Virus record (IMG/VR): IMGVR_UViG_3300033074_001483
Location: 1-64,000 of that record
Length of the DNA: 64,000 nt
Reading direction: 5' to 3' (one strand)
Origin: a virus
Taxonomy: Duplodnaviria; Caudoviricetes
The notes under the pieces are model-generated. The model saw nothing but the letters and a program-made list of their open reading frames with translations, was not told where the DNA came from and searched no databases. Every line of letters starts with the position of its first letter. Position 1 is the first letter of the stretch. The position numbers were made by a program, and so were the translations under genes. Shown in pieces: positions 50,459-64,000 of the stretch.

Positions 50459-50488
50459 CAACATTTCATCCCCAATTGCTACACAAAC

Positions 50489-50746: not shown

Positions 50747-51017
50747 TTTGTAGGTACTTGTTGATGAACTCGGCAACCTGTTTTGCATGTTCTGGAGTTA
50801 CGATGATATTGTCTGCCCACGGGTTGCCCGTACGTAGGATATTCCAACACCATCGGATTCGTTCACGCCAACAGAGAGGTCGGGAAGGGGCGTGCTCCCA
50901 AATAGAAAACCAGAATTCGTCAGGACAATCTTTATTTGGCCAAAAAGTGACTTCAATGGCTTCGCCATGACATTCACACTTAACCATTAAGGACTGTTCT
51001 TTTAGTTCTTCAGGCAT
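50724..51017 (-). CDS. Hypothetical protein (CECH motif)
   Basis: Downstream of a TTGACA-17-TAAAGT promoter at about 51028-51056. Confidence 0.65.
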   Translation of the reverse strand: MPEELKEQSLMVKCECHGEAIEVTFWPNKDCPDEFWFSIWEHAPSRPLCWRERIRWCWNILRTGNPWADNIIVTPEHAKQVAEFINKYLQNGKTKEN

Positions 51018-51062
51018 TGTGCGAGAACTTTACCACGGATGTAACCTGTTGTCAAGTCCAAT

Positions 51063-51416
51063 TTACTGAGTCGGAGATGCAAAATTGGTCACGACTGATG
51101 GAGAACTCGCAGGGAGTTGAACAATGGCAGATTGATTAGTGCCGGTGCCAACTACATTGACGGCAAATGCTCGAAACTTGTAAATGAATCCGGGCTGGAG
51201 ATTTCTTACTACAGCAGAGTTAGTTGTGGACGGAACATACGTGATGTAAGTCCAATTCGTCACGGCAGGAATCTTTTGGTATTCAATTCGGTATCCAGTA
51301 ACCAGCTCGTGTGCTGGGTTTGGTGTCCAAGTGAAAGTTGCATTGTAAGATACAACTTGTGCAATGGCGACTGCCAAAGTTCCAACGAGTAGAATGGATG
51401 CGAGTAGTTTCTTCAT
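51063..51416 (-). CDS. Secreted single-FN3-domain protein
   Basis: Signal peptide MKKLLASILLVGTLAVAIA; FN3 pattern W.PNP...GYRIEY...NLQPGFIYKFRAFAVN. Confidence 0.75.
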   Translation of the reverse strand: MKKLLASILLVGTLAVAIAQVVSYNATFTWTPNPAHELVTGYRIEYQKIPAVTNWTYITYVPSTTNSAVVRNLQPGFIYKFRAFAVNVVGTGTNQSAIVQLPASSPSVVTNFASPTQ

Positions 51417-51432
51417 ACCTATAAATAGTTGT

Positions 51433-51780
51433 TTATTGTATCACCAGCCTAAAATCTTTTACCATACTTGGGAGACTTTGAGCATCTGATGGAGTTATTA
51501 CAGCTATCTCATTGCCGAGGTCGCCTTCTAATCCATTATATGCTTTCGCTCTTGAGGAAAGATAAAGTAAAGTATTTGGAGGTAGATTGGAAATTGTTGC
51601 ACTTGTCATATACCCGACATTGATTGAGTTAGTATAGTTTTGACTGGATGGACCATAGTACAAAACAAAACCCGCCGTATCATTAGTACTTCCTTGATAA
51701 GAAATGTTGACTTTCAAATCCGAAGCAAGTACAGCGCATACGGCGGCAATGCAACAAACAATGGCGAGTAGTTTTTTCAT
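51433..51780 (-). CDS. Secreted single-FN3-domain protein
   Basis: Signal peptide MKKLLAIVCCIAAVCAVLA; GFVLYYGPSSQNYTNSINVG...ISNLPPNTLLYL. Confidence 0.7.
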   Translation of the reverse strand: MKKLLAIVCCIAAVCAVLASDLKVNISYQGSTNDTAGFVLYYGPSSQNYTNSINVGYMTSATISNLPPNTLLYLSSRAKAYNGLEGDLGNEIAVITPSDAQSLPSMVKDFRLVIQ

Positions 51781-51785
51781 GAAAT

Positions 51786-51873
51786 TGGCGGATGGTAAGA
51801 GAATCGAACTCTTGCTCGGTTTACCGAGGCCACAGTTTTCGAAACTGGCCCATTACCTCTCTGGCAACCATCC
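51786..51873 (-). tRNA. tRNA-Ser(CGA), canonical 7/5 fold
   Basis: GGATGGT/ACCATCC acceptor, loop TTCGAAA, long variable arm, TTCGATT T-loop, G73, encoded CCA. Confidence 0.9.
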
Positions 51874-51924
51874 AAATTTTGACGGATAAGTGTGTTTTTG
51901 AAAATTTGTTTCATATTTATTTGT

Positions 51925-52638
51925 ATGAAACTTCTTATACCAATAAATACACTTGATAAATATAAAAGTCGTGATCAAATACCATTAGAATGTGAAATCT
52001 GTAAGATTACCTTTTATAGAAACAAAAATGATATTCAATGGGCATTGAAATGTAAAACCAAAAATTGTTTGAAGGTCTGTGGGAAAAAATGTCAACAGAT
52101 AATCAATGATAAACGTCTCACTCTTGAATGTTATCAGTGTGGAACTTCTATCAAACGACAAAGACAATCAATCGCCAAATCAAAATTCCAATTCTGTTCA
52201 AGCAAATGTTCCGCAACATATTGGAATTCTCACAAAACTTGGGGAAGTAATCGTTCCAAACTTGAAATGTGGATTGAACAACAACTCACTACTACATACC
52301 CCAACCTTCCCATTGAATATAACAAAACCGATGCCATCAATGCTGAGTTAGATATTTACATTCCATCTTTAAAACTTGCGTTCGAGCTCAATGGCATATT
52401 CCATTATGAACCCATCTTCGGGATAGACAAACTAAAATCATTCCAAACAAATGATGCTCGAAAATTCCAATCTTGTATGGAAAATGGAATAGGACTTTGT
52501 GTTATTGATACATCTTCAATAAAGTACTTCAAAGAAGAACGAGGAAAGAAATTCCTTTCGATAATCACCCAAATCATAGACAAGAAAGTGGCGGAAGGCA
52601 CAGAGCACGATTCTGATGCACATTTAAGGCACGTATAG
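51925..52638 (+). CDS. Putative homing endonuclease (Zn-finger repeats + Vsr-like nuclease), antisense within the tRNA array
   Basis: CEIC, CGKKC, CYQC, CSSKC; ELDIYIPSLKLAFELNGIFHY. CATATTTAT motif at 51912-51920. 3' end overlaps tRNA-Ser(GGA) on the opposite strand. Confidence 0.75.
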   Translation: MKLLIPINTLDKYKSRDQIPLECEICKITFYRNKNDIQWALKCKTKNCLKVCGKKCQQIINDKRLTLECYQCGTSIKRQRQSIAKSKFQFCSSKCSATYWNSHKTWGSNRSKLEMWIEQQLTTTYPNLPIEYNKTDAINAELDIYIPSLKLAFELNGIFHYEPIFGIDKLKSFQTNDARKFQSCMENGIGLCVIDTSSIKYFKEERGKKFLSIITQIIDKKVAEGTEHDSDAHLRHV

Positions 52639-52677
52639 ATTTCCAATCTATCCCCACACCTAGCAGGTTTACCTTCC
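52589..52677 (-). tRNA. tRNA-Ser(GGA), non-canonical 8/4 fold
   Basis: 8-bp acceptor GGAAGGTA/TGCCTTCC, 5-bp D-stem, anticodon arm ATAGA-TTGGAAA-TCTAT, long V-arm, 4-bp T-stem CAGA/TCTG with loop ATCGTGC, G73, CCA. Confidence 0.85.
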
Positions 52678-52679
52678 AG

Positions 52680-52855
52680 TTCTTGGCATAGTCTTATGGA
52701 AGTTTAATACCTAGACCATTTCGCCGTCATCGCTATCCCTCTTTAGGCTGGGAGACCTGTCATGGTCTTCGGGTGAACTTAACACCTTACTTATTGTCCA
52801 TGATTTCCCCGTGTGTCCACACTACGGGAGTTCATTTTTCGGTATTCCTGCTATG
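52680..52855 (-). ncRNA. Unassigned structured RNA (about 175 nt)
   Basis: Follows a promoter and boxA-like motif; no convincing ORF. Terminal CATAG/CTATG pairing, hairpin CCCGT-A-GTG-TGGA-CAC-ACGGG, TCCC/GGGA and GACCAT/ATGGTC complementarities. Confidence 0.5.
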
Positions 52856-52929
52856 TCAAAGAACTATAAATCTTCGAGCATAAATATAGCAGAAGTTTTC
52901 CAAGGATGCAAGAAAAAAGTTTAAGAAAA

Positions 52930-53253
52930 TTACTGTTTGAGTTCCCAGTGTAAAATATCGTGGCAATTACCACATAGAACTTTACACTTGGCAATTTCCA
53001 AAAGAATTCTCTCCTTACACCAGTTGTGTCGCCTGACAGCTGTGCTGACATCCAAATCTTTTTTGGAAGGATCGAGATGATGAAATTTGATTACTGCGGG
53101 ATGCTTGAAACCACATCCCTCACACTTCAATGTAGATTTGTAATCATCAAACCATTCAATGATTTCACGTTTGCGAGCATCAACACGTTTTCTATGGTGA
53201 ACTTTATTCTGTTCATACCACGACTTGTTTTGTTGTTTAGTGGCCATAGACAT
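52930..53253 (-). CDS. HNH endonuclease
   Basis: CEGCG...FHHLDP...CKVLCGNCHDILH. Confidence 0.9.
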   Translation of the reverse strand: MSMATKQQNKSWYEQNKVHHRKRVDARKREIIEWFDDYKSTLKCEGCGFKHPAVIKFHHLDPSKKDLDVSTAVRRHNWCKERILLEIAKCKVLCGNCHDILHWELKQ

Positions 53254-53288
53254 AAATATGTCTGAACCACAGAAAGAAGTTCAGAAAA

Positions 53289-53362
53289 TGGCTGGGACGG
53301 AAGGAGTTGAACCCTCACTGAACGGGTCAGAACCGTGTGTGCTACCATTACACCACGTCCCA
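53289..53362 (-). tRNA. tRNA-Gln(CTG)
   Basis: TGGGACG/CGTCCCA acceptor, loop TTCTGAC, TTCAACT T-loop, CCA. Confidence 0.9.
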
Positions 53363-53419
53363 GTAAAGCGGGGAAACCATATTTCAGATCGCCCCATCGC
53401 CTTGCGGCGAGAAGTAAAT

Positions 53420-53493
53420 TGGTGGAGCCACGGGGAATCGCACCCCGATCTCAAGTATGCCATACTCGTGTCCTACTGTTGAACGATGGCCCC
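53420..53493 (-). tRNA. tRNA-Ala(GGC), variant elbow
   Basis: G3:U70 identity pair, loop ATGGCAT, D-loop AACAGT and T-loop TGCGATT, CCA. Confidence 0.88.
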
Positions 53494-53747
53494 GACACCA
53501 AGGGGAAGTGCCCCTCGGGTGGATTCGCTACACCATAAGGTGCAGGAGTTCCGACGTTTTTTACAAGATTGTCTCAAACTTGTTCTCGGCAGAGGTCGCT
53601 AACTACAAAACTATGACCGCCTTGCCTTCTTGGAATTCTCCTAGAGCAGTGGACGGAATGACATTTTGTAATTCCCTCAGTCACCGAAAAGTAGCACGGC
53701 GTCTGGTGCGATTGTTGATGAAACATTTCGTACGCCGTTTGTTAAAT
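53494..53747 (-). ncRNA. Unassigned structured RNA between two tRNA-Ala genes
   Basis: String of stems: ACGGCGT/ACGCCGT, GGAATT/AATTCC, GGCA..GGTC/GACC..TGCC, ACAAG/CTTGT, TGCACC-TTAT-GGTGTA, CACC.GAGGGG-CACTT-CCCC.GGTG. No convincing ORF. Confidence 0.5.
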
Positions 53748-53822
53748 TGGTGGAGCTACGGGGAGTCGAACCCCGATCTGCGGCTTGCAAAGCCACCGTA
53801 TTACCGTTATACAGATAGCCCC
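53748..53822 (-). tRNA. tRNA-Ala(TGC)
   Basis: G3:U70, loop TTTGCAA, TTCGACT, CCA. Confidence 0.92.
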
Positions 53823-54149
53823 ATACTAGATGCCAGTTTTATACTCACTACGAGTCCCTTTCGGAGTTATGGTGAGCCCGGAGGCTCAATTATTGGTTGC
53901 AGTGTGCATCTATTTCTAAACACTTAATGTCCGTTTGGGTGTCACCCCACGCTCTTAGCCCGACAATTAGGCGGCTCGGTAGTCCGAAAGTTATGTTGAC
54001 AACATAACACACTCTTTAGCACAAGTGAATTGGAAATTGTTCTTGGGTTACAGGACTTATTGGCCAATGCCTACTCGCTCTCCATCATTCTAACCGGAGA
54101 TCATCCCGGCAGAGTATCAGCATCACGAGCTTGCTGAGAACAATTAAAT
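53823..54149 (-). ncRNA. Unassigned structured RNA (about 325 nt)
   Basis: AATTGTTCT/AGAACAATT closing stem, TCAGCA/TGCTGA, perfect GTTATGTT-GTC-AACATAAC, GAGCC-TCCG-GGCTC, TCC-GAAA-GGGA, TAGATGC/GCATCTA long-range pair. Confidence 0.6.
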
Positions 54150-54239
54150 TGGTAGCGGAAGTAGGAGTTACACCTACCATAGTTAGCAGTGCTAACGCAC
54201 GTTATGAGCGTGCTTGGCGTCTTCCGGCCTGTCCCCGCA
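54150..54239 (-). tRNA. Atypical CAU-anticodon tRNA with a long variable arm
   Basis: TGCGGGG/TTCCGCT acceptor (U1:U72 mismatch), GCACG-CTCATAA-CGTGC, inserted GTTAGC-ACT-GCTAAC hairpin, GTAGG-TGTAACT-CCTAC T-arm, A73, CCA. Confidence 0.75.
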
Positions 54240-54686
54240 ATAAATCTCAAAGAACTTTTGTCTGTACGACTGGCATTGAATACCTGTCCGTATCCGATGG
54301 CATTTTGCACATCTCACCGAACACTTTTCAATCTCCAATCTAATCTTATCCCACGAAAATCCTCTCACAAGCATTGCATACACGGCGTCTTCTTTTTGTG
54401 AAGGGTCTTCGTGATCAAAGTCTAATACTCGTATGTCTGTTTCCCCACAATCTACGCACGGATGTATCATCAAATACTCACACACTTTTTGCTGTGAGTC
54501 TGCCAGTCTGCGTTTCGTTCCTTTGTTTGAACGAGTGATATACTCCCGTCTATTCTGTTTGTAATGCTGTTTTACGTACTTCCCATGACACTCTTTACAT
54601 TCAGAACAACGAAGATTTTTCGCTTTATTTCGGAATGAGAAACACTCATCCTCTTTTGGCTTTTTACAAGTACAACATTCTCTCAT
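54192..54686 (-). CDS. HNH endonuclease with an N-terminal zinc finger
   Basis: CCTC...CSECKEC; CVDCG...LDFDHED...CSVRCAKCHRIR. Stop codon lies 48 nt inside the atypical CAU tRNA. Confidence 0.85.
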   Translation of the reverse strand: MRECCTCKKPKEDECFSFRNKAKNLRCSECKECHGKYVKQHYKQNRREYITRSNKGTKRRLADSQQKVCEYLMIHPCVDCGETDIRVLDFDHEDPSQKEDAVYAMLVRGFSWDKIRLEIEKCSVRCAKCHRIRTGIQCQSYRQKFFEIYCGDRPEDAKHAHNVR

Positions 54687-54739
54687 ACTCATAAATATCA
54701 TCGTGGAGTCAAAAACATCAAAGTATTTTGACTACAAAG

Positions 54740-54811
54740 TGGTTGCGGTCGCTGGAATCGAACCAGTCCCTCACCTTATGAGAGTGAGATGCACCATTAC
54801 AACTCCCCGCA
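54740..54811 (-). tRNA. tRNA-Met/Ile2(CAT), imperfect acceptor stem
   Basis: TCACT-CTCATAA-GGTGA anticodon arm, TTCGATT T-loop, A73, CCA; two mismatches at the base of the acceptor stem. Confidence 0.75.
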
Positions 54812-54813
54812 AT

Positions 54814-54870
54814 TCAAAGAACAATCTTACGTTCTGCCTATAAATATAGCAGGACTTTTGAAAATGTCAA
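54814..54870 (-). promoter_or_regulatory. Composite promoter (TTGACA...TATATTTATA) plus boxA-like GTTCTTTGA
   Basis: TTGACA-16-TATATT overlapping the TATTTATA motif, then TGTTCTTTGAA immediately before the tRNA. Confidence 0.65.
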
Positions 54871-54881
54871 GCCTCCACGAA

Positions 54882-55064
54882 TTATTTTATTCGGTCCTGA
54901 ATATCCTTGGAAGTCAAAGATTTCAATGCTTCCCGGTCCTCTTTTTTGAGGCGATTTACCAAATACCCCGGCTTTTTCGGACCAGTACCCAATGCGGCAT
55001 GAAGAAGCAAACTATCAAAAACTTCTTGTGCTCGGCGTCGTTGTCGTCTAGTCAGTGATGACAT
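54882..55064 (-). CDS. Small basic hypothetical protein
   Basis: MSSLTRRQRRR..., start overlapping the coaD stop. Confidence 0.5.
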   Translation of the reverse strand: MSSLTRRQRRRAQEVFDSLLLHAALGTGPKKPGYLVNRLKKEDREALKSLTSKDIQDRIK

Positions 55065-55503
55065 ATTTTCGGTATTCCTCGGGAGAAATTTTTTCAATTG
55101 CTCTCAATGCGCTGGAACTGATATGTCTCAAATTTGGATTGCAATAAAATGCAACAATCTTGACATAGGGTTCCATACTTCTCAGAAATGCAACGAAATT
55201 TTGTTCGTATTCCAAATCTGCACCGCTGCGGAGTCCACGAACAAGTGTTACATCGTAATCCAAATTCCTTTCAAGACCCCGAATGTAATCGGAAAGTAAT
55301 CCCCCGAATTCATCACTATCCACATCCATATCTTTCAAGAAATTAACAGGAAGAGGGTGAGTAGAAAGTGGTTTTTCTGGATTAACACCACGAGCAACAA
55401 TCACTTTGTCAAAAACTTTAGTTGCCTGTTTGACAACATCTAAATGCCCAACGTGAAAGGGGTTGAACGAACCGGCGTAAACTCCAACTTTTAGTTTGCT
55501 CAT
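55048..55503 (-). CDS. coaD: Phosphopantetheine adenylyltransferase
   Basis: YAGSFNPFHVGH, LVRGLRSGADLEYE and HISSS motifs. Confidence 0.85.
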   Translation of the reverse strand: MSKLKVGVYAGSFNPFHVGHLDVVKQATKVFDKVIVARGVNPEKPLSTHPLPVNFLKDMDVDSDEFGGLLSDYIRGLERNLDYDVTLVRGLRSGADLEYEQNFVAFLRSMEPYVKIVAFYCNPNLRHISSSALRAIEKISPEEYRKYVITD

Positions 55504-56099
55504 ACTTTTACGATTAGTGCTTTATAACTCGGCAAACCCTTGACTCCCATCAATGGTACAATCTTCTCGGGTTTATCTTTGAAAAATTCATCTGTGGCAA
55601 CTTTTGGTCCGGGCCACAAATCCGTTCCGTAATCATCTATCAATACCACTGCACCTTTTTCCAGATGATTGTATATCAATCTTAATGCCGACTCAGTACT
55701 TGTTTTCAAATCACCATCAAGATGTGCGAATGAAATCTTTAACGGAATGTCGGATTCGGTCAACTGTTCAAACCATCCTTTATGGATAATTGGGATAGGA
55801 ACATTATACGATCTGAATGTCAATAGAAAAGACTCTACCGAACTTGACATTTCTCCACCATGACCTTCAGCCCTTGGCAATCCCATAAAGCTATCATAAA
55901 CATGAACGGGACGATTTGTGAGAGCATTTATCATTCTGGCAGTGTAACCCTCATGACATCCAAACTCAACTACATCACCTTCCAAATGCTCGGTTTCCAT
56001 GACATAATGGCAAATGTGTACTATCCGTGAAAAGTCCTGCATTCCAATACAGGACTTCAACATTGTGGCAAGTTTTTGTGATAATGTTTCATCAAACAT
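55500..56099 (-). CDS. TylF/MycF-family SAM-dependent O-methyltransferase
   Basis: LEGDVVEFGC, VYDSFMGLP, KGWFE, FAHLDGDL and GAVVLIDDY motifs. Confidence 0.85.
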   Translation of the reverse strand: MFDETLSQKLATMLKSCIGMQDFSRIVHICHYVMETEHLEGDVVEFGCHEGYTARMINALTNRPVHVYDSFMGLPRAEGHGGEMSSSVESFLLTFRSYNVPIPIIHKGWFEQLTESDIPLKISFAHLDGDLKTSTESALRLIYNHLEKGAVVLIDDYGTDLWPGPKVATDEFFKDKPEKIVPLMGVKGLPSYKALIVKV

Positions 56100-56100
56100 A

Positions 56101-56487
56101 TTACCACCATAGATGTCGGAACCACTCGGCAAATAATTCTATTCCCGCTTCATAGCGTTTCCAGTTTTTGTCTTGTTCTTCGGCAGTAAGTTTTGAATAC
56201 TTTTCGTTTTCATGATTAAGAGACCAATCAAATGCAAAAATCATTTCGTCCAAGTAATCATCCCATTGTTTAGAAGTCAACTGGCCGGGGAATCCCATAT
56301 TGACTTCTTTGAAGCGAATAAGTCGTGGAAGAATAAACTCCGCAATCACCGAATCCAGACCCCAAGTTTCAGCATCCGAAAACCCTTGGGTTTTCAATTG
56401 TCTAAAATGCTTTTTGTATCGTTTGTCGGTTTTCTCAAGGTATAATGGTTCTTTGAGAGACCAACGACTTGTTAGTTTTTTGCTCAT
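56101..56487 (-). CDS. Hypothetical protein
   Basis: 128-aa ORF in the operon, ending in LFAEWFRHLWW. Confidence 0.65.
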   Translation of the reverse strand: MSKKLTSRWSLKEPLYLEKTDKRYKKHFRQLKTQGFSDAETWGLDSVIAEFILPRLIRFKEVNMGFPGQLTSKQWDDYLDEMIFAFDWSLNHENEKYSKLTAEEQDKNWKRYEAGIELFAEWFRHLWW

Positions 56488-56939
56488 AGTGATGCATATA
56501 GACGACGAAATGCTGCTTCTTCATCCCACGTTCCTCCTGTCAGAACCTCGATACATCTTCCATGTGGGAGTTCAAAATCTGGAACATGATACTTTTCTCT
56601 TCCTCGGATTTCTCCTGTGAAAACATGAATTTCAACAACATCATTTCGTGAACCTTTGAATTCTTCTCGAACATCACGATACGGATTAACTGTTGACACA
56701 ATGACATCAATTCCTTGATCTGCTATATGTGCTACAAACCGTTGGAGAGCACGAGTCTGTTCAATACGATATTCTTTGGTGAAATTTTCAGGTTTGTCGT
56801 AAGGAACAGCAAAGATTTTTCGGAGGTTATCACCATCAAGATGGAGAACTGCTGAACCTTTGGCACGCAATTCAGAAGCGAGTCGTTTTGCCAATGTAGT
56901 CTTGCCACAACCGGGTTGTCCTATAAACCAGTAAATCAT
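56484..56939 (-). CDS. cysC: Adenylylsulfate kinase-like P-loop kinase
   Basis: WFIGQPGCGKTTLA, LDGDNLR, VIVSTVNPYRDVRE; shorter than typical CysC. TTGACT-16-TATAAT promoter upstream (about 56946-56973). Confidence 0.7.
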   Translation of the reverse strand: MIYWFIGQPGCGKTTLAKRLASELRAKGSAVLHLDGDNLRKIFAVPYDKPENFTKEYRIEQTRALQRFVAHIADQGIDVIVSTVNPYRDVREEFKGSRNDVVEIHVFTGEIRGREKYHVPDFELPHGRCIEVLTGGTWDEEAAFRRLYASL

Positions 56940-56981
56940 GCCGTTATTATAGCATGGATACTATTGAAGTCAAGTGGAAAG

Positions 56982-57055
56982 TGGTGGAGCTAAAGGGAAT
57001 TGAACCCTTATCTTCGCAGTGCGAGTGCGATGTCCTGCCGTTGAACGACAGCCCC
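56982..57055 (-). tRNA. tRNA-Ala(CGC)
   Basis: G3:U70, TCGCA-CTCGCAC-TGCGA, TTCAATT, CCA. Confidence 0.92.
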
Positions 57056-57437
57056 ATTCGGGCAACTTGTCAGTCACCCACGATGTTACTCGTTATCCAA
57101 ACCTATTTCTACGAGCTGCACGTAGATGCCAGTCTTGACCCTACCTCGGAACCTCGGTCAATCCTATAGCACGTTACTACAACAAAAGCCGCCGTTCCGC
57201 AGCGACGTGTCAGTTTAGAAATTCGGTGCTCATGGTCTGCTTATAGTACTCTGGAGGTCTCGCAGAAGCCCTGACCCAGACACGAGCAAAATATCGTTTG
57301 CAGATCGTATCGTCGAACGATACGCTGTGCAAACGGAAAAATGGTGAGATGGGCAGTGCAAACTGCTTTCTACAGGGGGGACGGCACCACGTCTGTCCCT
57401 TATGGAGTACTCCTTTCGGGACGCCCATCTCATTCTG
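57056..57437 (-). ncRNA. Unassigned structured RNA (about 380 nt) between RNase P RNA and tRNA-Ala(CGC)
   Basis: GAGATGGGC/GCCCATCTC multibranch domain, GTTTGCA..CGTATCG-TTCGA-CGATACG..TGCAAAC hairpin, TGCTC.GTG.TCTG/CAGA.CAT.GAGCA, TTGACC/GGTCAA, CTACG/CGTAG. Confidence 0.6.
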
Positions 57438-57728
57438 TTTTTGTCGCAGCCGTAGCCGCAATTCTGTTCTATCTCTACATTTTTCTCAAGGTCAACCATA
57501 CGGTTGCCAAGTCCCTCACGGGATGCCTCAACCCGGGCTTTACAATGGGAAGCACTACCCTTTGCCCTGTTTGAGTTGCTGTTACTTTGTGGTGTTAACG
57601 AATGGTTTGCCCACGGTCAAGAGGGCGTCGGTAAAGACCCATTCTCCCAAACAGCTGCTTTACAGTTGCGAACTTCCTCTGGTTGCTCCTGTTCAGGCGG
57701 AACCAGCGTAGAGTCGCTTACGACAAAA
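57438..57728 (-). ncRNA. rnpB: RNase P RNA (compact, about 290 nt, reduced specificity domain)
   Basis: Manually mapped on the bacterial consensus: P1 TTTTGTCG/CGACAAAA, P2 CTCTAC/GTAGAG, P3 CTGGTT/AACCAG, P4 AG(T)TCGCAA/TTGCGGCT with bulged U after GAGGA and ACAGAA before the 3' strand, P5 CTGT/ACAG, J5/15 CAA, P15 CTCA/TGAG with L15 GGGT, P16 GGGC/GCCC, P6 AAGCA/TGCTT, P18-like hairpin. Confidence 0.88.
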
Positions 57729-57731
57729 TTC

Positions 57732-57775
57732 TCAAAGAACTGGTGGTACGATACCACACTTCGTCAAAATGTCAA
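57732..57775 (-). promoter_or_regulatory. Sigma70-like promoter plus boxA-like motif for the rnpB operon
   Basis: TTGACA-16-(TGG)TATCGT, then AGTTCTTTGAG 3 nt before P1. Confidence 0.6.
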
Positions 57776-57780
57776 CCTTT

Positions 57781-58137
57781 TTATGGGATGACTGCACCTT
57801 GCCCCGGTGCTGGAGGGGGAGTAACCACTGGTGGAGTTACAACTGGAGGCGTAACCACTGGTGGTTGAGTATTGACTCCTGTTTTATTCTCCAAAAATCG
57901 TCTTGCTGTATAAGTTCCACAGAGGACCAGAGTTACATAAACATATGGTTCTGGTACATCGGCAAGTTTGTCCGTTTTGAAAGTGACGTATCCGATAAGT
58001 GTCATAAAGAACACCATCCATATGAGAAACATCAGTCCTGTGCGGGACATTCTTCCTCGGTGGTCCAAGAGTAGTTCGATTGGTTTTGCCATATGTGATA
58101 AAAGTTGGTGCTGCCTATCAGATTCGAACTGATACAT
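57781..58137 (-). CDS. Two-TM membrane protein (holin-like) with a PPVVT-repeat tail
   Basis: Two hydrophobic helices and C-terminal (PPVVT)x3. Confidence 0.5.
   Translation of the reverse strand: MYQFESDRQHQLLSHMAKPIELLLDHRGRMSRTGLMFLIWMVFFMTLIGYVTFKTDKLADVPEPYVYVTLVLCGTYTARRFLENKTGVNTQPPVVTPPVVTPPVVTPPPAPGQGAVIP
57820..57866 (-). repeat. Three tandem 15-nt repeats encoding PPVVT
   Basis: Plus-strand ggagtaaccactggt/ggagttacaactgga/ggcgtaaccactggt. Confidence 0.8.
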
Positions 58138-58205
58138 TCTACCTTCTCAGGGTAGCGACTCCTTCCAGTTGGTCTAAGGCAGCGTTTGACTATCTATAAA
58201 TAGTT

Positions 58206-58562
58206 TTAGAACCCCTGTTCCGACTCACGAAATTTCTTGATGTCTTCTAGCAATCCTTCTCGGTCATCACGGTATTTCTGAATCATGTAGGCAAATCCCT
58301 CACGGTCTTCTTCCTCCACCATTTCTGTAACGAATCTGGCAATGTCTTCGTCGGAGGGTTGCCAGTCAAACTCTTCACAAACAGCGGCGATTTTGGTTCC
58401 CATCGGGGTCATGTTGAATGCACATTCTACAAGACCAAGCTTTTGAATTTGGTCAAGGTAATGGATAATCATCATTACCGAAATGGTTTGGGTTGGTTCT
58501 TCAAACACACCCTCTAACTTGAGGCGTTCGAGAATTGCCTTTACTGTTTCGTCAATTGTCAT
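58206..58562 (-). CDS. Acidic hypothetical protein
   Basis: 118-aa ORF with its own promoter. Confidence 0.65.
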   Translation of the reverse strand: MTIDETVKAILERLKLEGVFEEPTQTISVMMIIHYLDQIQKLGLVECAFNMTPMGTKIAAVCEEFDWQPSDEDIARFVTEMVEEEDREGFAYMIQKYRDDREGLLEDIKKFRESEQGF

Positions 58563-58574
58563 AGGAAATTTTAC

Positions 58575-58613
58575 CTTTCGGGAAGACTATAACATACATC
58601 TTCCCGAAAGTCA
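58575..58613 (-). promoter_or_regulatory. Sigma70-like promoter embedded in a perfect 12-bp inverted repeat
   Basis: TTGACT-17-TATAGT; CTTTCGGGAAGA (58575-58586) and TCTTCCCGAAAG (58599-58610) flank the -10 box. Confidence 0.6.
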
Positions 58614-58616
58614 AGG

Positions 58617-58988
58617 TTAAAACCAGAGCCAATCGGCGTCCTTCTTGAAGGTGGGCATTACAGCATCGTAGTCGCCTTGGCGGATTTTCGCCAAGACACG
58701 ACGCTCTTGTGCCTTGCGTTGTTTCCACAGAGTTTTACGGAAGTGTTTGGGAGCGTGATTCCAGTGTTTGTGAGTCCCATTTTCGATGGCACGGGCTTGA
58801 CGCTCAATGCTTTCGAAATGACTTTTGATTTGTTCCAAAGTATCCCACAATCGCACCCAGTAGTCACGGGGAGCAACGTCAATGCGATACGGACAGAGAG
58901 TCTCGTAGGGATGATTTTGGTTACGGATACGATTCCAGTGTTTGACACGGAAGCGTCGGTTGCGAATGTACTTGTTTTCAGTTCTCAT
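58617..58988 (-). CDS. Basic hypothetical protein
   Basis: 123-aa ORF, R/K/W-rich. Confidence 0.6.
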   Translation of the reverse strand: MRTENKYIRNRRFRVKHWNRIRNQNHPYETLCPYRIDVAPRDYWVRLWDTLEQIKSHFESIERQARAIENGTHKHWNHAPKHFRKTLWKQRKAQERRVLAKIRQGDYDAVMPTFKKDADWLWF

Positions 58989-59067
58989 TGGTTATGCGAA
59001 CCTACACCTTTATGATGTAAGTCACATACCAAAGAACATGAGTTGAGTTGTCATATACATAAGAAAT

Positions 59068-59145
59068 TGGTCGGAGTGATAGGATTTGAACCTACGACCT
59101 TCTGCTCCCAAAGCAGACGCACTAGCCAAGCTGTGCTACACTCCG
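59068..59145 (-). tRNA. tRNA-Pro(TGG)
   Basis: CGGAGTG/CACTCCG, TCTGC-TTTGGGA-GCAGA, TTCAAAT, CCA. TATTTATA motif 5 nt upstream. Confidence 0.93.
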
Positions 59146-59158
59146 TTGTCTATAAATA

Positions 59159-59506
59159 TCAGTACGGTCTTGGTTTAGTTTTACCATCAACAATTGTTAA
59201 AGTTCCTTTTATTTTTGGCAATTCTTCAACTAATCCACCTACCGAGACGAGCGATTCGTTTTCGATTTTCGCTTTCTCTTGCAAATTCTTCTCGTCACGA
59301 GCAATGGTTTCGTCGGCGAGTTTCTTGTATTCGTCGGGGAGAGACTCTCCAACAGCTTTAAGAACGTCTCTAGCGAACTCTGCGTCCTTCTGGAGCCTTT
59401 CTTTAACAAACTCTTGGGCGAGTTCGACCTTTTTGCGTTGCACTTCTTGTGCGATCCAAACGTTCTTGGCATTCAGTTTTCTCTTTGCTGATCTTAATCC
59501 ACCCAT
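59159..59506 (-). CDS. Coiled-coil hypothetical protein
   Basis: Start placed at MGGLRSAKRK to avoid a 170-nt overlap. Confidence 0.55.
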   Translation of the reverse strand: MGGLRSAKRKLNAKNVWIAQEVQRKKVELAQEFVKERLQKDAEFARDVLKAVGESLPDEYKKLADETIARDEKNLQEKAKIENESLVSVGGLVEELPKIKGTLTIVDGKTKPRPY

Positions 59507-59522
59507 AACTAATTCTTTCTCA

Positions 59523-59855
59523 TTACTTGTTTTTATTTTGCCCCTGTCCTTGCCCTTGCCCCTGACTTCCCGAGTTTTGGTTTCCACCACCCTGATTGCC
59601 GCCTTGATTCCCCTGATTTTCTTTGTCTTTCTTTTCCTTAATCTTTTTTCCATAGAAAAGACGACGAATCTTTTTCCATTCTTTTTCGTCATCGGTCAAC
59701 GGCTTCCCGTGCTTGACATCTGCTTCGATAAAAGAAGCAAGACTAGAAGATTCTGTAGTCATTACTTCTTCAGGGTCCAATGGACCAATGAAAGTAATAT
59801 CGAGAAATGCGTACTGCCTTGTCTCAATGAATTCTTGTGCTTGATCTTCTGTCAT
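59523..59855 (-). CDS. Hypothetical protein with a G/Q/N-rich tail
   Basis: Start placed at MTEDQAQ, just after the tRNA-Val CCA; tail NQGGNQGGG...QGQGQGQ. Confidence 0.55.
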   Translation of the reverse strand: MTEDQAQEFIETRQYAFLDITFIGPLDPEEVMTTESSSLASFIEADVKHGKPLTDDEKEWKKIRRLFYGKKIKEKKDKENQGNQGGNQGGGNQNSGSQGQGQGQGQNKNK

Positions 59856-59859
59856 AAAT

Positions 59860-59933
59860 TGGTGGGCCATGATGGTTACGCTCCATCGTCTCATCAGTGT
59901 CAGTGATGAATTCTACTATTAAACTAACAGCCC
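59860..59933 (-). tRNA. tRNA-Val(GAC), variant elbow
   Basis: GGGCTGT/ATGGCCC, CATCA-CTGACAC-TGATG, D-loop AATAGT, T-arm GATGG-AGCGTAA-CCATC, A73, CCA. Confidence 0.85.
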
Positions 59934-60005
59934 GTATTCCGTGATTAAAGCGGGTTCACGGAAAAAGAAACCATATCGCACGCCATAAGGCTGCGAGGAG
60001 CGACA

Positions 60006-60377
60006 TTAAGGAATGTCTCCGACCTTTAGCCACGTTGGGATAAACCCAATGTCATCAAGGACTCTTTTCTTGGTCTGGTTTATCACCGACTTGTAAACCC
60101 AATCGGGATACCCTTGACAATACTCACGAATCTCTTGAGGAAAGAACAAAGGACACTGCAATTGCCGATCCCACATTCCTTCTGACCAAAGTTTGATTTG
60201 AAGATTGACCGACTCTTTCCCTTCTTGGGCACGCTTCACTAAGTCCCATTCCCGTGTCGGCACCATCAATCCATTTTCCAAACAGAGAAAGCTATACATT
60301 CCACTTTCACCATTTGGTTCATTCGGAGGTAAAAATCCCGGATGACATTCAAAGAGCTTTGGGAAATTGATGTACAA
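60006..60377 (-). CDS. Hypothetical protein, start uncertain
   Basis: The frame stays open about 50 codons upstream of the TTG start (see findings). Confidence 0.55.
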   Translation of the reverse strand: MYINFPKLFECHPGFLPPNEPNGESGMYSFLCLENGLMVPTREWDLVKRAQEGKESVNLQIKLWSEGMWDRQLQCPLFFPQEIREYCQGYPDWVYKSVINQTKKRVLDDIGFIPTWLKVGDIP

Positions 60378-60489
60378 CTCCCAATTTTCAACAAATTCTT
60401 TTCTCTTAACCGCCCGATACTTCGGGAGATTAACAGGCTTTAGATTCCCTTGTCCTTCATTGCGTTTGGCATTGTCATAGCATCCTCCG

Positions 60490-60675
60490 TCATTTGTTTT
60501 GTTGATGTCGCAGTATGCGAAACACCGTACTAAGAATAATTACTATCGGCCACACCAAAACATTCAGTAACCAGAACGATATTCTCTCTTGCCAATTACC
60601 AAGGGGTGCCATTTCCATGTACAGCAAAAAACCCCATACTAACCCGACCAGTAAATAAAGGACGATGTATAGCAT
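60490..60675 (-). CDS. Small two-TM membrane protein
   Basis: Hydrophobic 61-aa ORF behind a TTGACA-17-TAGAGT promoter. Confidence 0.6.
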   Translation of the reverse strand: MLYIVLYLLVGLVWGFLLYMEMAPLGNWQERISFWLLNVLVWPIVIILSTVFRILRHQQNK

Positions 60676-60689
60676 GGGAGAACTCTACA

Positions 60690-60854
60690 CTATTTTGAAG
60701 TATCTGTCAAGTGCCATTTCTTGCACGCCTTACATCGGTAAGGGCGAAGACAAGCCCCGAAACCGCCAAGCGACTCTTGAAGGATGCGATGAATCTCCCG
60801 CATTACTTCTTCTTTGGAAGCGTACTCACGCTTTCCTTGGCAGTGGAACTTCAT
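60690..60854 (-). CDS. Small zinc-finger-like protein (54 aa; not in the ORF track)
   Basis: Manual translation MKFHCQGKREYASKEEVMREIHRILQESLGGFGACLRPYRCKACKKWHLTDTSK, with a Y.C..C..WHLT motif. Confidence 0.65.
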   Translation of the reverse strand: MKFHCQGKREYASKEEVMREIHRILQESLGGFGACLRPYRCKACKKWHLTDTSK

Positions 60855-60859
60855 GAATG

Positions 60860-60933
60860 TGGTAGGCGATATTGGAGTTGAACCAATGCCTGTTCTGTGT
60901 GAGAGAACTATTCTACCGTTATAATAATCGCCT
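60860..60933 (-). tRNA. tRNA-Val(CAC)
   Basis: AGGCGAT/ATCGCCT, GTTCT-CTCACAC-AGAAC, TTCAACT, CCA. Confidence 0.9.
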
Positions 60934-60937
60934 ATTG

Positions 60938-61234
60938 TTAGATTTTGACAAACTTACCGATGTTTCTTTCAATTGACTTCTTGGATTTGGGATCAAATCC
61001 CATTTCCCAACAATTGTCTTCGGCATCGGAATGACACCATAGAGATGGACTTCCCATTTCACCACCCGTATCAAAAATGACAACTTTCACTTTACTGCCA
61101 TCCTTGAGTTCCATCTCGTCTTTACATTCTCCCCAACAAATCATAAAGACATCAGCAAGTTTATGAATCTTGCGCTTCTTTACGAACTTCAATCCGAGGG
61201 ACTTCCAGTTTGTAACTAATTCTTGGTTTGTCAT
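60938..61234 (-). CDS. Hypothetical protein
   Basis: Start placed at MTNQELV, after the tRNA-Ser CCA. Confidence 0.6.
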   Translation of the reverse strand: MTNQELVTNWKSLGLKFVKKRKIHKLADVFMICWGECKDEMELKDGSKVKVVIFDTGGEMGSPSLWCHSDAEDNCWEMGFDPKSKKSIERNIGKFVKI

Positions 61235-61238
61235 AAAT

Positions 61239-61329
61239 TGGCGGTAGGCTGAGGTCACGCTCCCCACACCCGTCTAAGGGGTGCAATCACGTTAGCACCG
61301 TGTTCTGGGCCTCGCCCAGTTAACCTACC
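61239..61329 (-). tRNA. tRNA-Ser(GCT), non-canonical 8/4 fold
   Basis: GGTAGGTT/AGCCTACC 8-bp acceptor, D-arm CTGGG-CGAGG-CCCAG, loop GTGCTAA, long V-arm, T-arm GGGG-AGCGTGA-CCTC, G73, CCA. Confidence 0.83.
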
Positions 61330-61694
61330 AAAAACTGCGGTATTGTCGAAACACTTATTTGATTTCTTCCATCGAGAATGTTTGATGGAATGAGATACTT
61401 TTTCTCATCCCCATCTACAATGAATACCAAATCACAATCTTCTTTGGATAAATGTTTGATGTCCAACTTTTTTCCTCGTGTGTTACTTACGGTTCTCAAC
61501 TCAACATTATAAGTGTTGTGTTTGTTTTTCTTAAAGCACGTTTTTACTTGAACTCTAAGACACTTACCGTCCTTTTCCACAATCAAATCATAAGGTTGAC
61601 TATCAGATAGTGGAACTGCAACTGTATATTCCATTTTGAGGAAATACGCAATCGCATATCCAGTTCCAACATCACCTTGTTTTCGACTATTCAC
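61320..61694 (-). CDS. PD-(D/E)XK endonuclease (group I intron-associated type)
   Basis: KQGDVG...YDLIVEKDGKCLRVQVKT. Stop codon lies within the 5' end of tRNA-Ser(GCT). Confidence 0.85.
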   Translation of the reverse strand: MNSRKQGDVGTGYAIAYFLKMEYTVAVPLSDSQPYDLIVEKDGKCLRVQVKTCFKKNKHNTYNVELRTVSNTRGKKLDIKHLSKEDCDLVFIVDGDEKKYLIPSNILDGRNQISVSTIPQFLVG

Positions 61695-61820
61695 TTAAAT
61701 CGGTCCAGTATTTTCATATTGAAAACCTGTGTAAAAAGTCACGGATCAAGTTCGCCACAATTTCCTGCCTGTGGACTTAACCACTCAGCTCATGGTCGGT
61801 GTTGACCGAGTACCTCAGAT

Positions 61821-62078
61821 TCAACGAATGTATTTTGCTTTCTTTATTCGCTCAACACATTCAAATCCATATTCGTCTTGCCACTTTGCCGAAGCCGCCC
61901 ACATCGTTCTTACTTCTTCCAAAGTTGGTGGAGGCATTGCTCTCAACTTCGCCATTCGATCTTTCAACCATTGTGGTGCCCCAATAACCCATTCACCAAG
62001 TACCTTTGTCCATCGGTCTCGATGCTCACACTGGCAAAACCCCGGAATCAACCCGTGACATGTACCACATGTTTTCAT
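61821..62078 (-). CDS. Hypothetical protein with an N-terminal Cys cluster
   Basis: MKTCGTCHGLIPGFCQCEH. Confidence 0.55.
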   Translation of the reverse strand: MKTCGTCHGLIPGFCQCEHRDRWTKVLGEWVIGAPQWLKDRMAKLRAMPPPTLEEVRTMWAASAKWQDEYGFECVERIKKAKYIR

Positions 62079-62241
62079 GACATGCAACAAATAATTGCTG
62101 CCATCATCATTGCATCGTCAGAATCACGTCGGCGACGATCATCATCATCTTCATCTCGTTTGCGCTTACGCTCACATTCATCACATTCATTGCGATAGTT
62201 GAGATTTTTCACTTCTCGGTTGCATTTGTAGCACTTTTCAT
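62075..62241 (-). pseudogene. Small Cys/acidic ORF apparently frameshifted right after its ATG
   Basis: ATG at 62241 reads MKSATNATEK*, whereas the -1 frame reads KCYKCNRE...DDAMMMAAIICCMS. One A is missing from the ATGAAAA run. Confidence 0.4.
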
Positions 62242-62246
62242 AAATC

Positions 62247-62325
62247 TGGTGCGCTTGACAGGACTCGAACCTGTGATGATAAGTTGCGTGTAAAGCAACC
62301 GCCGTCGCCGCTGGGCCACAAGCGC
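62247..62325 (-). tRNA. tRNA-Val(TAC)
   Basis: GCGCTTG/CAAGCGC, GTTGC-TTTACAC-GCAAC, TTCGAGT, CCA; slightly enlarged variable loop. Confidence 0.9.
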
Positions 62326-62414
62326 ATTGTCGGGTATAAATATGCCACAAACTTCCAAAAAAGTCAAGCTGTTTCAGGGTTTAGACCACTACTTATAGTA
62401 GAGATGGTCTAAAT

Positions 62415-62834
62415 ATGAAACAGCAAAGCAATTGTTTATCTTGTAATTCCCTTATTGAGTATGATGACGGAAATGAGTACGGTCATTTTTGCAACAACCG
62501 CTGTCAACAAGAGTATCGGTATTTACACAATACGAAACCACGAATAGAAATGGGTAAGGTGTCCGAACGACATACCCTTAAAAGGTATCTAATTCGAGAG
62601 CGTGGAGAAAAATGTGTTATCTGTAACAATCTTCCTGTGTGGAATGGAATGCCCCTCTCATTGATTGTAGATCATATAGACGGAAATTCCGACAACCATT
62701 CCCCAATCAATCTTCGTTTAGTATGTCCTAACTGTAATTCTCAACTTCCAACTACAAAAAATAGGACAATGAAATCTGCGAAGCGAAACGTGTACCTGCG
62801 TAAGTATAAACAAACACACGAGGTTAGAAACTAA
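62415..62834 (+). CDS. HNH endonuclease, antisense between two tRNA genes
   Basis: CVICN...LIVDHIDGNSDNHSPINLRLVCPNCNSQ. Confidence 0.9.
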   Translation: MKQQSNCLSCNSLIEYDDGNEYGHFCNNRCQQEYRYLHNTKPRIEMGKVSERHTLKRYLIRERGEKCVICNNLPVWNGMPLSLIVDHIDGNSDNHSPINLRLVCPNCNSQLPTTKNRTMKSAKRNVYLRKYKQTHEVRN

Positions 62835-62837
62835 AAT

Positions 62838-62925
62838 TGGCGGTAGGCTGAGGTCACGCTCCCCACACCCTTTCAGGTGCGATCCGATTTCAAGTCGGTC
62901 CTGAGTCTCACTCAGTTAACCTACC
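62838..62925 (-). tRNA. tRNA-Ser(TGA), non-canonical 8/4 fold
   Basis: Same acceptor and T-arm as tRNA-Ser(GCT); D-arm CTGAG-TGAGA-CTCAG (compensatory changes); ACCGA-CTTGAAA-TCGGA; G73, CCA. Confidence 0.87.
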
Positions 62926-63043
62926 GTTTATTTGGGTCAATACAGTAAACGTCAAACATTCTTCCGTTAGGAAGACGAAAACGTATCACTCGTTCTTTCG
63001 ACTTCTCTTGTCTCCTAAACAGTGATTTGATCCATTTCATCAT
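62921..63043 (-). CDS. Small basic peptide (40 aa)
   Basis: MMKWIKSLFRRQEKSKERVIRFRLPNGRMFDVYCIDPNKR behind a composite TTGACT/TATATTTATA promoter; stop lies inside the tRNA 5' end. Confidence 0.45.
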   Translation of the reverse strand: MMKWIKSLFRRQEKSKERVIRFRLPNGRMFDVYCIDPNKR

Positions 63044-63078
63044 ATCTGTCTATAAATATACCACGTTCCCGATAAAAG

Positions 63079-63507
63079 TCAAGGAGAAGTTCTCAACTCT
63101 TTTGGAGGAACTGGTTTATCGTTCTTGTTGGTAATTGTGAACCCACATTTCGCTTCTTTAATGTAGGCGGTTTCCGTTCCGTCGGGATAAATGAATGTAT
63201 AGGCAGTGAAAATCTGGTTACTCAATACTAATCCATAAATCGGTATGCTGACGTAATTTGATACAGTTGATGGAACACAATTGTATTGGTCATACCCTGT
63301 GTATGGAGTAGAAGTAAAATTAGTCACCGCAACCGTTACACTATTGGTATATGTATTGGTTCTACTACCATAGTAAACACGAATGTATGCCGGAGGTTGC
63401 CCATCTTTGAGCGGAGCATTGTCAGGGTTCCATCTGAAAATAACCATTGCTGGATATGCTATGTAAATGGAGAGACATAGCACAAGCATCATGAATATCT
63501 TTTTCAT
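63079..63507 (-). CDS. Secreted FN3-like protein
   Basis: Signal peptide MKKIFMMLVLCLSIYIAYPA; W.PD...YIRVYYGSRTNTYTNSV resembles 51433..51780. Confidence 0.65.
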   Translation of the reverse strand: MKKIFMMLVLCLSIYIAYPAMVIFRWNPDNAPLKDGQPPAYIRVYYGSRTNTYTNSVTVAVTNFTSTPYTGYDQYNCVPSTVSNYVSIPIYGLVLSNQIFTAYTFIYPDGTETAYIKEAKCGFTITNKNDKPVPPKELRTSP

Positions 63508-63674
63508 TCATCTTTTTTGATTACTTCGTCCCGATAGTACCCGCACGGACACCACAGACGAATTGTGTTTTCTTTGTCAACTACCAAGTGTTCATCCCTT
63601 TTAGGGATTCGCCTACGTAATGGACCATGACATTTTGGGCAATGGTCATTGTTGAGAAAATACTGTTGCTCCAT
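63504..63674 (-). CDS. Small zinc-ribbon protein
   Basis: CPKC...WCPCGYY; TACTTATA motif upstream. Confidence 0.6.
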   Translation of the reverse strand: MEQQYFLNNDHCPKCHGPLRRRIPKRDEHLVVDKENTIRLWCPCGYYRDEVIKKDE

Positions 63675-63685
63675 ACCTATAAGTA

Positions 63686-64000
63686 TCAAGCAATTGCACT
63701 GTCTTTAGCGATAGTGCAATGAAAACATTTAGAATATCCCGGTGGGGGAATGGTAATGCGACTCTTTATAGAAAGACCAATCTCTTTACGAATGTCTTCC
63801 ATCGTCACACACCACAGATTGAACCACCAAAATCCACCTTCGTATAGAATTGTGGGGTCATAAACAAAGGGAACTATTTCACCCTCATGCTTTCCCCAAT
63901 TCTCAAGATTTGTTGGATTATCTTCGGGACGAACTACAGTAACGTGTGCTTTCCACCGAGGGCGAACGACCCGAAGCGATTTCGGGATTAGAGAATAGTA
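63686..64000 (-). CDS. 2H phosphoesterase-family protein, partial (enters from the right edge; not in the ORF track)
   Basis: Manual translation ...RWKAHVTVVRPE...YSKCFHCTIAKDSAIA* shows two H-x-T motifs. Confidence 0.65.
   Translation of the reverse strand, partial: YYSLIPKSLRVVRPRWKAHVTVVRPEDNPTNLENWGKHEGEIVPFVYDPTILYEGGFWWFNLWCVTMEDIRKEIGLSIKSRITIPPPGYSKCFHCTIAKDSAIA

Follow-up and report, generated by a model that had tools for sequence, protein, structure and literature searches.

What are two closely similar, long-armed, tRNA-like elements in the tRNA array of a large phage, and would they serve as serine tRNAs? The question is posed by the 64 kb of DNA that were analysed here (the window), which are the first 64 kb (GC 41.9%) of the 85,516-bp IMG/VR virus record IMGVR_UViG_3300033074_001483 (Duplodnaviria; Caudoviricetes). 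The two elements, which are named by their anticodons in what follows, are tRNA-Ser(GCU) at 61239..61329 and tRNA-Ser(UGA) at 62838..62925. An earlier note, made from the letters of this DNA alone, had described them as a pair of serine tRNA genes of the 8/4 type, with an 8-bp acceptor stem, a 4-bp T stem and a long variable (V) arm, and all of this is found, at these places and on the minus strand. We read the elements as functional phage-encoded serine tRNAs of the published (8/4) tRNA-Ser/allo-tRNA architecture, and assign to this reading a probability of about 0.8; charging and use in translation of the 8/4 serine tRNAs are its predicted part.

The GCU gene is 91 nt and the UGA gene 88 nt long, in each case with encoded CCA; their anticodons lie at 61294-61296 and 62890-62892, respectively. 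Both genes have the 8-bp acceptor stem GGUAGGUU/AGCCUACC, an AA spacer, a 6-bp variable stem, a 4-bp T stem (GGGG/CCUC) with the T loop AGCGUGA, G73 and CCA. In the GCU gene, nucleotides 1-8 form the 5' acceptor strand and 9-10 the AA spacer; 11-16 pair with 20-25 in a D stem with a GAG loop, and 26-31 with 39-45 in an anticodon stem from which A43 is bulged and which carries the loop GUGCUAA (with G at position 32); 46-51 and 59-64 form the V stem, with a 7-nt loop, 65-68 and 76-79 the T stem, and 80-87 the 3' acceptor strand. The UGA gene has an identical acceptor stem, AA spacer, V-stem 3' strand and T arm, together with a D stem CUGAGU/ACUCAG that is likewise closed by a GAG loop, the anticodon loop CUUGAAA, and a V stem closed by a GAAA tetraloop. 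The two genes agree at each of their first 13 and last 33 nt (identity of the 3' 33 nt had been claimed and is exact in the sequence comparison), and the identity continues for 4 nt into the 3' trailer (ATTT), the 5' flanks being unrelated. The compensatory D-stem change that had also been pointed out is present at the fourth pair, as G-C against A-U, and the sixth pair is C-G in one gene and U-A in the other. The cloverleaf with an 8/4 branch is the minimum-energy fold of both genes (RNAfold; z of -2.6 and -3.4, with -3.4 for the UGA gene).

Do homologs bear this fold out? A 15-nt T-arm pattern gave mostly chance matches in coding DNA when it was run on viral contigs, and was replaced by a pattern anchored at the CCA end. 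T arm plus CCA is found at 49 viral loci, which fall into two groups: serine tRNAs that have a long arm, the same T arm and 8-nt acceptor ends pairing perfectly, and class I tRNAs of the ordinary 7/5 kind (Asp, Met/Ile, Gln and others), whose T loop is AGCGUAA and whose D loop is AAUAGUA. Among prokaryotic genomes, one per species, genuine serine-type members occur only in Verrucomicrobiota (mostly Opitutaceae), Myxococcota and one Gemmatimonadota metagenome-assembled genome (MAG); most of the matches in high-GC actinobacterial and other genomes of that collection were discarded as chance matches inside genes.

Every helix covaries in an alignment (A2) of 26 serine-type sequences that had been preselected for eight of eight acceptor pairs: 95.9-97.3% of the cells are paired, against 70% in shuffles and ~50% with slid partners. 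The D stem has 6 bp and a GAG triloop, its sixth pair being CG in 16 sequences and UA in five, and is better drawn in this way than with the 5 bp and 5-nt loop of the earlier note. The anticodon stem, too, has 6 bp, with one bulged base on its 3' strand; its outer pair is GC in 13, CG in six and AU in five sequences, and the pair 28-47 is formed in 24 of the 26. The V stems, 6 bp long with loops of 4 and 7 nt, also covary, and there is no unpaired linker base between D stem, anticodon stem, V arm and T stem. The eighth acceptor pair occurs as UA (11 sequences), GC (eight), AU (four), CG (two) and GU (one). When all matches of a covariance model (R1) in 26 loci are taken, the family grows to 76 genes, in an alignment that is fitted to R1 and hence biased towards that model's structure, and in which the eighth acceptor pair is formed in 73 (UA26, GC22, AU22, CG2, GU1). 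The pair is also formed in 44 of the 46 genes that lack the T-arm search sequence (AU17, GC14, UA13), and T stems covary (GGGG/CCUC, GUGG/CCAC, GAGA/UCUC, CAGA/UCUG and others).

The same letters can be read as a 7/5 fold, with U8-A-A as a three-nucleotide connector and a fifth T-stem pair that is made with the last base of the V arm. In the window genes the U before GGGG could indeed pair with the A after CCUC, and this competing pair is formed in 29 of the 76 homologs; but it is impossible in the other 47 and fails in 13 of the 26 sequences of A2, while position 8, paired in five different ways, is often not U. Since position 8 covaries, it is not a U8 kept for tertiary contact, and a true 7/5 fold is very improbable. 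The 8/4 reading of the fold, which had been proposed for the pair, is well supported on comparative grounds, because the eighth pair covaries and the rival pair often fails. R1 scores the UGA gene at 92.3 bits and the GCU gene at 83.9 bits, both of them being in its training set, and gives 48-82 bits to the 46 genes that are outside the training set and without the T-arm search sequence. Both window sequences are beyond chance resemblance to tRNA.

What do these genes decode? Of the family members, 72 have a 7-nt anticodon loop, and every one of these has a serine anticodon (GGA20, CGA18, UGA18, GCU16); G73 is found in 72 of the 76 homologs, and U33 and A37 are nearly invariant. The contig (the whole 85.5-kb record) holds more than the pair: a third 8/4 gene, tRNA-Ser(GGA), lies at 52589..52677 on the minus strand, with the acceptor stem GGAAGGUA/UGCCUUCC, the T arm CAGA-AUCGUGC-UCUG and a D loop with GG. 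It was recognised by its fold and by R1 (56.4 bits, E 1e-10, outside the training set), and ARAGORN reports it only at the 90% threshold. Thus two 8/4 genes stand as the earlier note had them, but they are not the complete set; beyond the GCU, UGA and GGA genes there is no strong R1 match anywhere in the contig. The only serine tRNA that ARAGORN finds there is the canonical 7/5 tRNA-Ser(CGA) at 51786..51873 (minus strand), which scores 49.2 bits with the Rfam tRNA model and 23 bits with the 8/4 model. There is accordingly one gene per serine anticodon, GCU, UGA and GGA being of the 8/4 and CGA of the 7/5 type, with no duplicates. Across 30 large open reading frames (ORFs), none of the six serine codons goes unused: AGY accounts for 34%, UCU/UCC for 36%, UCA for 18% and UCG for 12%, and the GCU gene is the contig's only AGY reader. 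It is this complementarity, one gene per anticodon, that argues most strongly for decoding by the 8/4 genes.

The GCU copy is the more vulnerable of the two to a different explanation, in which it is a pseudogene, the decaying by-product of a recombination event, and the UGA copy alone is functional. It is chimeric, as described below; it has G32, and a classical 5-bp anticodon stem would have A opposite A at its base; ARAGORN does not recover it at any threshold; and an endonuclease ORF overlaps its first 10 nt. Yet all of its helices are intact, including the compensatory D-stem changes relative to the UGA copy, and the A.A opposition disappears when the stem is drawn as in the family at large, with 6 bp, the pair 28-47 among them, and one bulge. 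The earlier note was right about the presence of G32, but not in treating it as an oddity of this copy, since the loop GUGCUAA occurs in nine of the 16 GCU members, which come from this phage, another, unrelated phage and several Verrucomicrobiota; G32 reads as a trait of the GCU isoacceptor and not as a lesion. When its 84 bits with R1 and its place as sole reader of a third of the serine codons are added, decay of the GCU copy appears distinctly unlikely.

Several other members of the family have unusual structures. Three Verrucomicrobiota MAGs contain 8/4 tRNA-Ser(CGA)-like genes (L220:6181-6323, L168:387-535 and L206:7438-7585) with an insertion of ~61 nt directly after the anticodon and therefore in the anticodon loop; these insertions are mutually similar in sequence and could be introns or an inserted element. 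In a Verrucomicrobiae MAG (L208, ~3606-3700) the 3' two-thirds of an 8/4 tRNA-Ser are intact but unrelated sequence stands in place of the 5' acceptor strand, so that this truncated gene could mark an integration junction. The gene at L227:4580-4669 has a 7-nt duplication in its anticodon loop and is pseudogene-like.

The elbow of these tRNAs is altered. In both window genes the T loop, AGCGUGA, is without U54-U55 and the D loop has A-G in place of G18-G19. A D loop without GG is always accompanied by a T loop with G55 (42/42), and U55 is found only with GG D loops (21/21). The contact between D loop and T loop seems to be kept by covariation, with A18:G55 taking the place of G18:U55, which would be expected of a working, L-shaped tRNA. 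Ordinary 7/5 tRNAs of the same array have this elbow also: tRNA-Val(GAC) at 59860-59933 and tRNA-Ala(GGC) at 53420-53493 in the window, and tRNA-Thr(GGU) at 78438-78511 and tRNA-Arg(GCG) at 74596-74670 of the contig have G55-type T loops (AGCGUAA or UGCGAnU) and D loops with A-G, not G18-G19. The combination of AGCGUAA with AAUAGUA occurs in class I tRNAs of many identities, in more than 25 viral contigs. The altered elbow is thus not specific to the serine genes.

How might these tRNAs be made and used? The 8/4 genes would be transcribed with the adjoining small genes, and host RNase P and 3' nucleases would excise the tRNAs, whose CCA end is already encoded. Host seryl-tRNA synthetase (SerRS) would charge them by way of the long variable arm and G73, a long arm with G73 or U73 being what SerRS recognises, and the acceptor/T helix of 8+4 = 12 bp would be accepted by EF-Tu and the ribosome because it is as long as the canonical 7+5. 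The GCU copy would then read AGY and the UGA copy UCA/UCG; once Ser(GGA), of the 8/4 type, and Ser(CGA), of the 7/5 type, are added, all six serine codons would be covered by a phage set that supplements or replaces host tRNAs during infection.

The RNAs might instead be made and have no part in decoding, as look-alikes that soak up or evade tRNA-directed defences, or as regulatory RNAs. There are precedents: some allo-tRNAs are described as inactive in translation and linked to toxin-antitoxin loci (PMC5389517), and a defence that cuts the variable loop of class II tRNAs and is countered by phage tRNA gene amplification has been documented (PMC13096335). The rebuilt T loop would, moreover, remove standard T-loop enzyme sites. 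A decoy, however, needs no complete and non-redundant set, and the three 8/4 genes supply exactly the serine anticodons that would otherwise be missing; anticodons across the family are serine without exception and in balanced numbers; and G73, U33, A37 and CCA are kept in the supposed decoys. Nor do the two roles exclude each other, for a nuclease-resistant tRNA would still decode. A role confined to something other than translation is therefore judged unlikely.

The reading of the two elements as functional serine tRNAs has to bear several points that weigh against it. The preselection of A2 and the bias of the 76-gene alignment have been stated already; to these must be added a genuine-looking homolog (L178) that was left out of A2 and has G.G at the eighth pair. 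Because the T loop is without U54 and U55, it cannot receive the usual TrmA and TruB modifications. The GCU copy has its G32, and is the only gene that ARAGORN does not fold at any threshold. Finally, the class II synthetase core domain PF00587 was not found in the 85.5-kb contig, so that the predicted charging would depend on the host enzyme, although little follows from a search of ~24% of a genome.

Why have such genes escaped notice? The earlier note had expected tRNA finders to miss both, and this is true of default ARAGORN, which finds neither the GCU nor the UGA gene, and of the Rfam tRNA and tRNA-Sec models, which leave both unmatched at E<=1 in 14 kb and at E<=10 in the surrounding 1.8 kb; the neighbouring tRNA-Val scores 56 bits in the same scan. 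Relaxed ARAGORN yields the UGA gene at the 80% threshold and never folds the GCU gene correctly. A comparison of ARAGORN with a custom 8/4 covariance model had been put forward as a check; R1, whose training set includes both genes, gives them the scores stated above. Automatic annotation loses 8/4 serine genes, and phage tRNA repertoires and statements about a "missing serine tRNA" are biased as a result. BLAST against GenBank phages uncovers 8/4 tRNA-Ser members (R1 scores of 52-78 bits) in two cultured phages, Stenotrophomonas phage DLP_6 (KU682439.2, 106110-106194 and 105131-105214, which are L273:1497-1581 and 518-601) and Xanthomonas phage BUDD (ON758385.1; L274:1376-1461, 1473-1556 and 2048-2131). 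They have CGA, UGA and GGA anticodons, and the GenBank annotation has no feature at those places.

How did the two genes come to share so much? The best guide is the closest relative, a viral contig (G003) that is collinear with positions 48.9-67.7 kb, at 65-80% identity and with the same tRNA order. It has 8/4 GCU and UGA genes in equivalent positions, and the 120-nt block between them is conserved in both contigs. In G003, the syntenic GCU gene has a different acceptor stem and a different T arm (GAGA-GGCGGGA-UCUC). Outside its D-apex/anticodon arm, the window GCU gene is identical at 52 of 56 positions, V arm included, with the UGA/CGA-type genes of G003 and G004 (a further contig), and at only 35 of the same 56 with the syntenic GCU gene. 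Its middle segment matches other GCU genes at 19-20 of 32 positions and UGA/CGA-type genes at 13-18 of 32, a difference too marginal to tell which gene donated the anticodon arm. By these comparisons the GCU gene reads as a recombinant, built on a UGA/CGA-type framework and having its own D-apex and anticodon arm. Duplication followed by an anticodon-arm switch, which had been suggested, accords with these figures, but gene conversion of an older GCU gene explains the chimera equally well, and the two cannot be separated; by one route or the other, it probably arose in an array that is full of homing endonucleases.

Each of the two genes has such an ORF beside it. A PD-(D/E)XK endonuclease ORF at 61320..61694 (minus strand; Pfam PF11645, E 1e-19) lies directly upstream of the GCU gene, and its stop codon, UAA, is formed by tRNA nucleotides 8-10; relative to G003, it is an insertion that parts the conserved block from the GCU gene. 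An HNH-type endonuclease ORF at 62415..62834 (plus strand) has a visible HNH motif and Pfam matches to HNH_3/HNH at E 1e-4 to 5e-4, with scores just under the curated cut-offs; it stops 4 nt short of the UGA gene's CCA end. This ORF and a canonical tRNA-Val(UAC) at 62247..62325 (minus strand; found by ARAGORN, Rfam 56.4 bits), which is situated between the two serine genes, lie between the conserved block and the UGA gene.

The conserved non-coding block itself, at 61702..61822 on the minus strand (~120 nt, ~83% identity to G003 by BLAST and pairwise alignment), is better conserved than the surrounding ORFs and directly precedes the GCU tRNA gene in G003. It contains a hairpin (CCACA...UGUGG) and a promoter-like site at 61735-61707, and is probably the promoter/leader of the GCU gene; an RNA gene was considered at this place and set aside, since the block has no significant overall fold (z of -0.6 and +0.4). 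A consensus scan also shows a sigma-70-like promoter match, TTGACT-16-TATATT with TG (10/12), at 63055..63082 on the minus strand, ~130 nt upstream of the UGA gene, but promoter-like sites in the region, both candidates included, are not more numerous than in shuffles.

Endonuclease-driven duplication of a tRNA segment has been documented for SegB in phage T6 (PMC13096335), and by analogy the chimera at the GCU/UGA locus may have had an endonuclease-driven origin. A more ambitious proposal would combine these elements: new isoacceptors would be born when a cassette of D-apex and anticodon arm is moved onto, or retained within, the UGA/CGA 8/4 framework in the course of break repair at the flanking homing-endonuclease genes, with the altered elbow hiding the set from host enzymes. 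The proposal is speculative, and we hold it to be rather unlikely. If it is true, phage arrays diversify their serine tRNAs by swaps of anticodon arms on a single framework that SerRS recognises, and an elbow with A18:G55 and A54:U58 conceals the entire set from host enzymes or nucleases that are directed at the T loop.

Where do these genes stand among known tRNAs? Those with 8/4 and 9/3 branches were described by Mukai et al. (2017, Nucleic Acids Res 45:2776; PMC5389517), who also reported (8/4) tRNA-Ser in phage tRNA clusters; the earlier note had held the fold to be known already, and the match with these published phage tRNAs is good. The window genes share with them the 12-bp branch of 8+4, the long V arm, G73, serine anticodons, a long D stem with a tiny loop, a lengthened anticodon stem, the site in phage tRNA clusters and the failure of standard finders to see them. 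Allo-tRNAs are reported to resemble tRNA-Sec in the length of their D and anticodon stems and, in E. coli, to insert serine (PMC5389517; PMC7609411). Mukai et al. describe the D loop as a tetraloop, where the window genes have the GAG triloop, and allo-tRNAs proper, unlike these genes, mostly have non-serine anticodons; the 3-nt GAG loop shows no obvious Y20, which is a strict allo-tRNA trait. Bacterial tRNA-Sec (selC, 8/5) resembles the window genes in its 8-bp acceptor stem, 6-bp D stem with a small loop, 6-bp anticodon stem, long V arm and G73, and is charged first by SerRS. In contrast, its 13-bp branch excludes EF-Tu and its UCA anticodon reads UGA, whereas the window genes have 12 bp and read serine codons; membership of the tRNA-Sec class was rejected on account of the 4-bp T stem, the anticodons for AGY and UCA/UCG, and the absence of a match to RF01852. 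Canonical 7/5 tRNA-Ser, such as the CGA gene of this contig, has the long V arm, G73 and serine anticodons in common with the 8/4 genes, and presumably the same synthetase, but differs in its 7/5 branch, unpaired U8, D stem of 3-4 bp with a large GG loop and T loop of the UUCGAUU type. Assignment to the canonical class (RF00005; U8, G18G19/U54U55C56) was likewise dropped, there being no match at E<=10, a paired position 8, a GAG D loop and the T loop AGCGUGA. The interleaving of tRNA genes with small endonuclease ORFs is familiar from T-even and T5-like phage tRNA regions (PMC13096335), where homing endonucleases are free-standing and are documented to drive both duplication and co-conversion of tRNA segments, although the endonuclease there is the GIY-YIG enzyme SegB and here PD-(D/E)XK (PF11645) and HNH enzymes are found. 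The window genes thus belong to a class already known from Mukai et al., and what is known of that class is unchanged by them; the additions are modest, and consist of a refined anatomy, a third gene, the GCU chimera, G32 as a family trait, the elbow covariation and unannotated members in cultured phages.

Which hosts do such phages infect? A search for homologs that would point to a host lineage with 8/4 tRNA-Ser of its own, as the earlier note had advised, did not lead to one. The bacterial members sit in dense arrays, in which ~3 kb hold 4 to 22 detected tRNA genes and which may themselves be mobile, or else be phage DNA that was placed in a MAG by binning; inference of a host from the matches in Opitutaceae and other Verrucomicrobiota, Myxococcota and Gemmatimonadota was given up for that reason. 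The cultured carriers, DLP_6 and BUDD, infect Xanthomonadaceae; because they do, carrying an 8/4 tRNA-Ser requires no host with 8/4 serine tRNAs of its own, and the charging of allo-tRNAs in E. coli, as reported in PMC5389517, agrees with this. The picture that emerges is of a coherent 8/4 lineage that decodes serine alone, has an elbow chemistry of its own and circulates between large phages and dense bacterial tRNA arrays. The presence of members in cultured phages with tractable hosts makes 8/4 charging, modification and nuclease resistance directly testable.

The contig is a fragment of a much larger genome. CheckV puts its completeness at 24%, which implies a genome of ~350 kb, and a related viral contig of 353,772 bp is rated 100% complete. 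The first 50 kb hold large minus-strand genes, including those for baseplate wedge, tail fibre and SbcCD-like proteins; these are followed, at 51.8-78.8 kb of the contig, by 40 minus-strand tRNA genes with encoded CCA (ARAGORN), with small ORFs in between. The array exceeds 40 tRNA genes, and its carrier is a jumbo phage of roughly 350 kb. An ORF at 55500-56132 (minus strand) inside the array encodes a TylF-like/class I SAM methyltransferase (PF05711, E 4e-15) that might be an RNA- or nucleotide-modifying enzyme. An Rfam scan of 50000-64000 shows no RNase P family at E<=1 at 57438-57728, a result with which a very reduced form is still compatible. Outside the window, at 75626-75699 of the contig (minus strand), there is a tRNA-Asp(GUC)-like 7/5 gene, with the T loop AGCGUAA, the D loop AAUAGUA and U37, that default ARAGORN misses and that appears at the 90% threshold. 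A canonical tRNA-Asp(GUC) lies directly downstream of it, at 75548-75622, and genes of near-identical architecture to the Asp-like one are found in other viral contigs (L124, L125 and L132).

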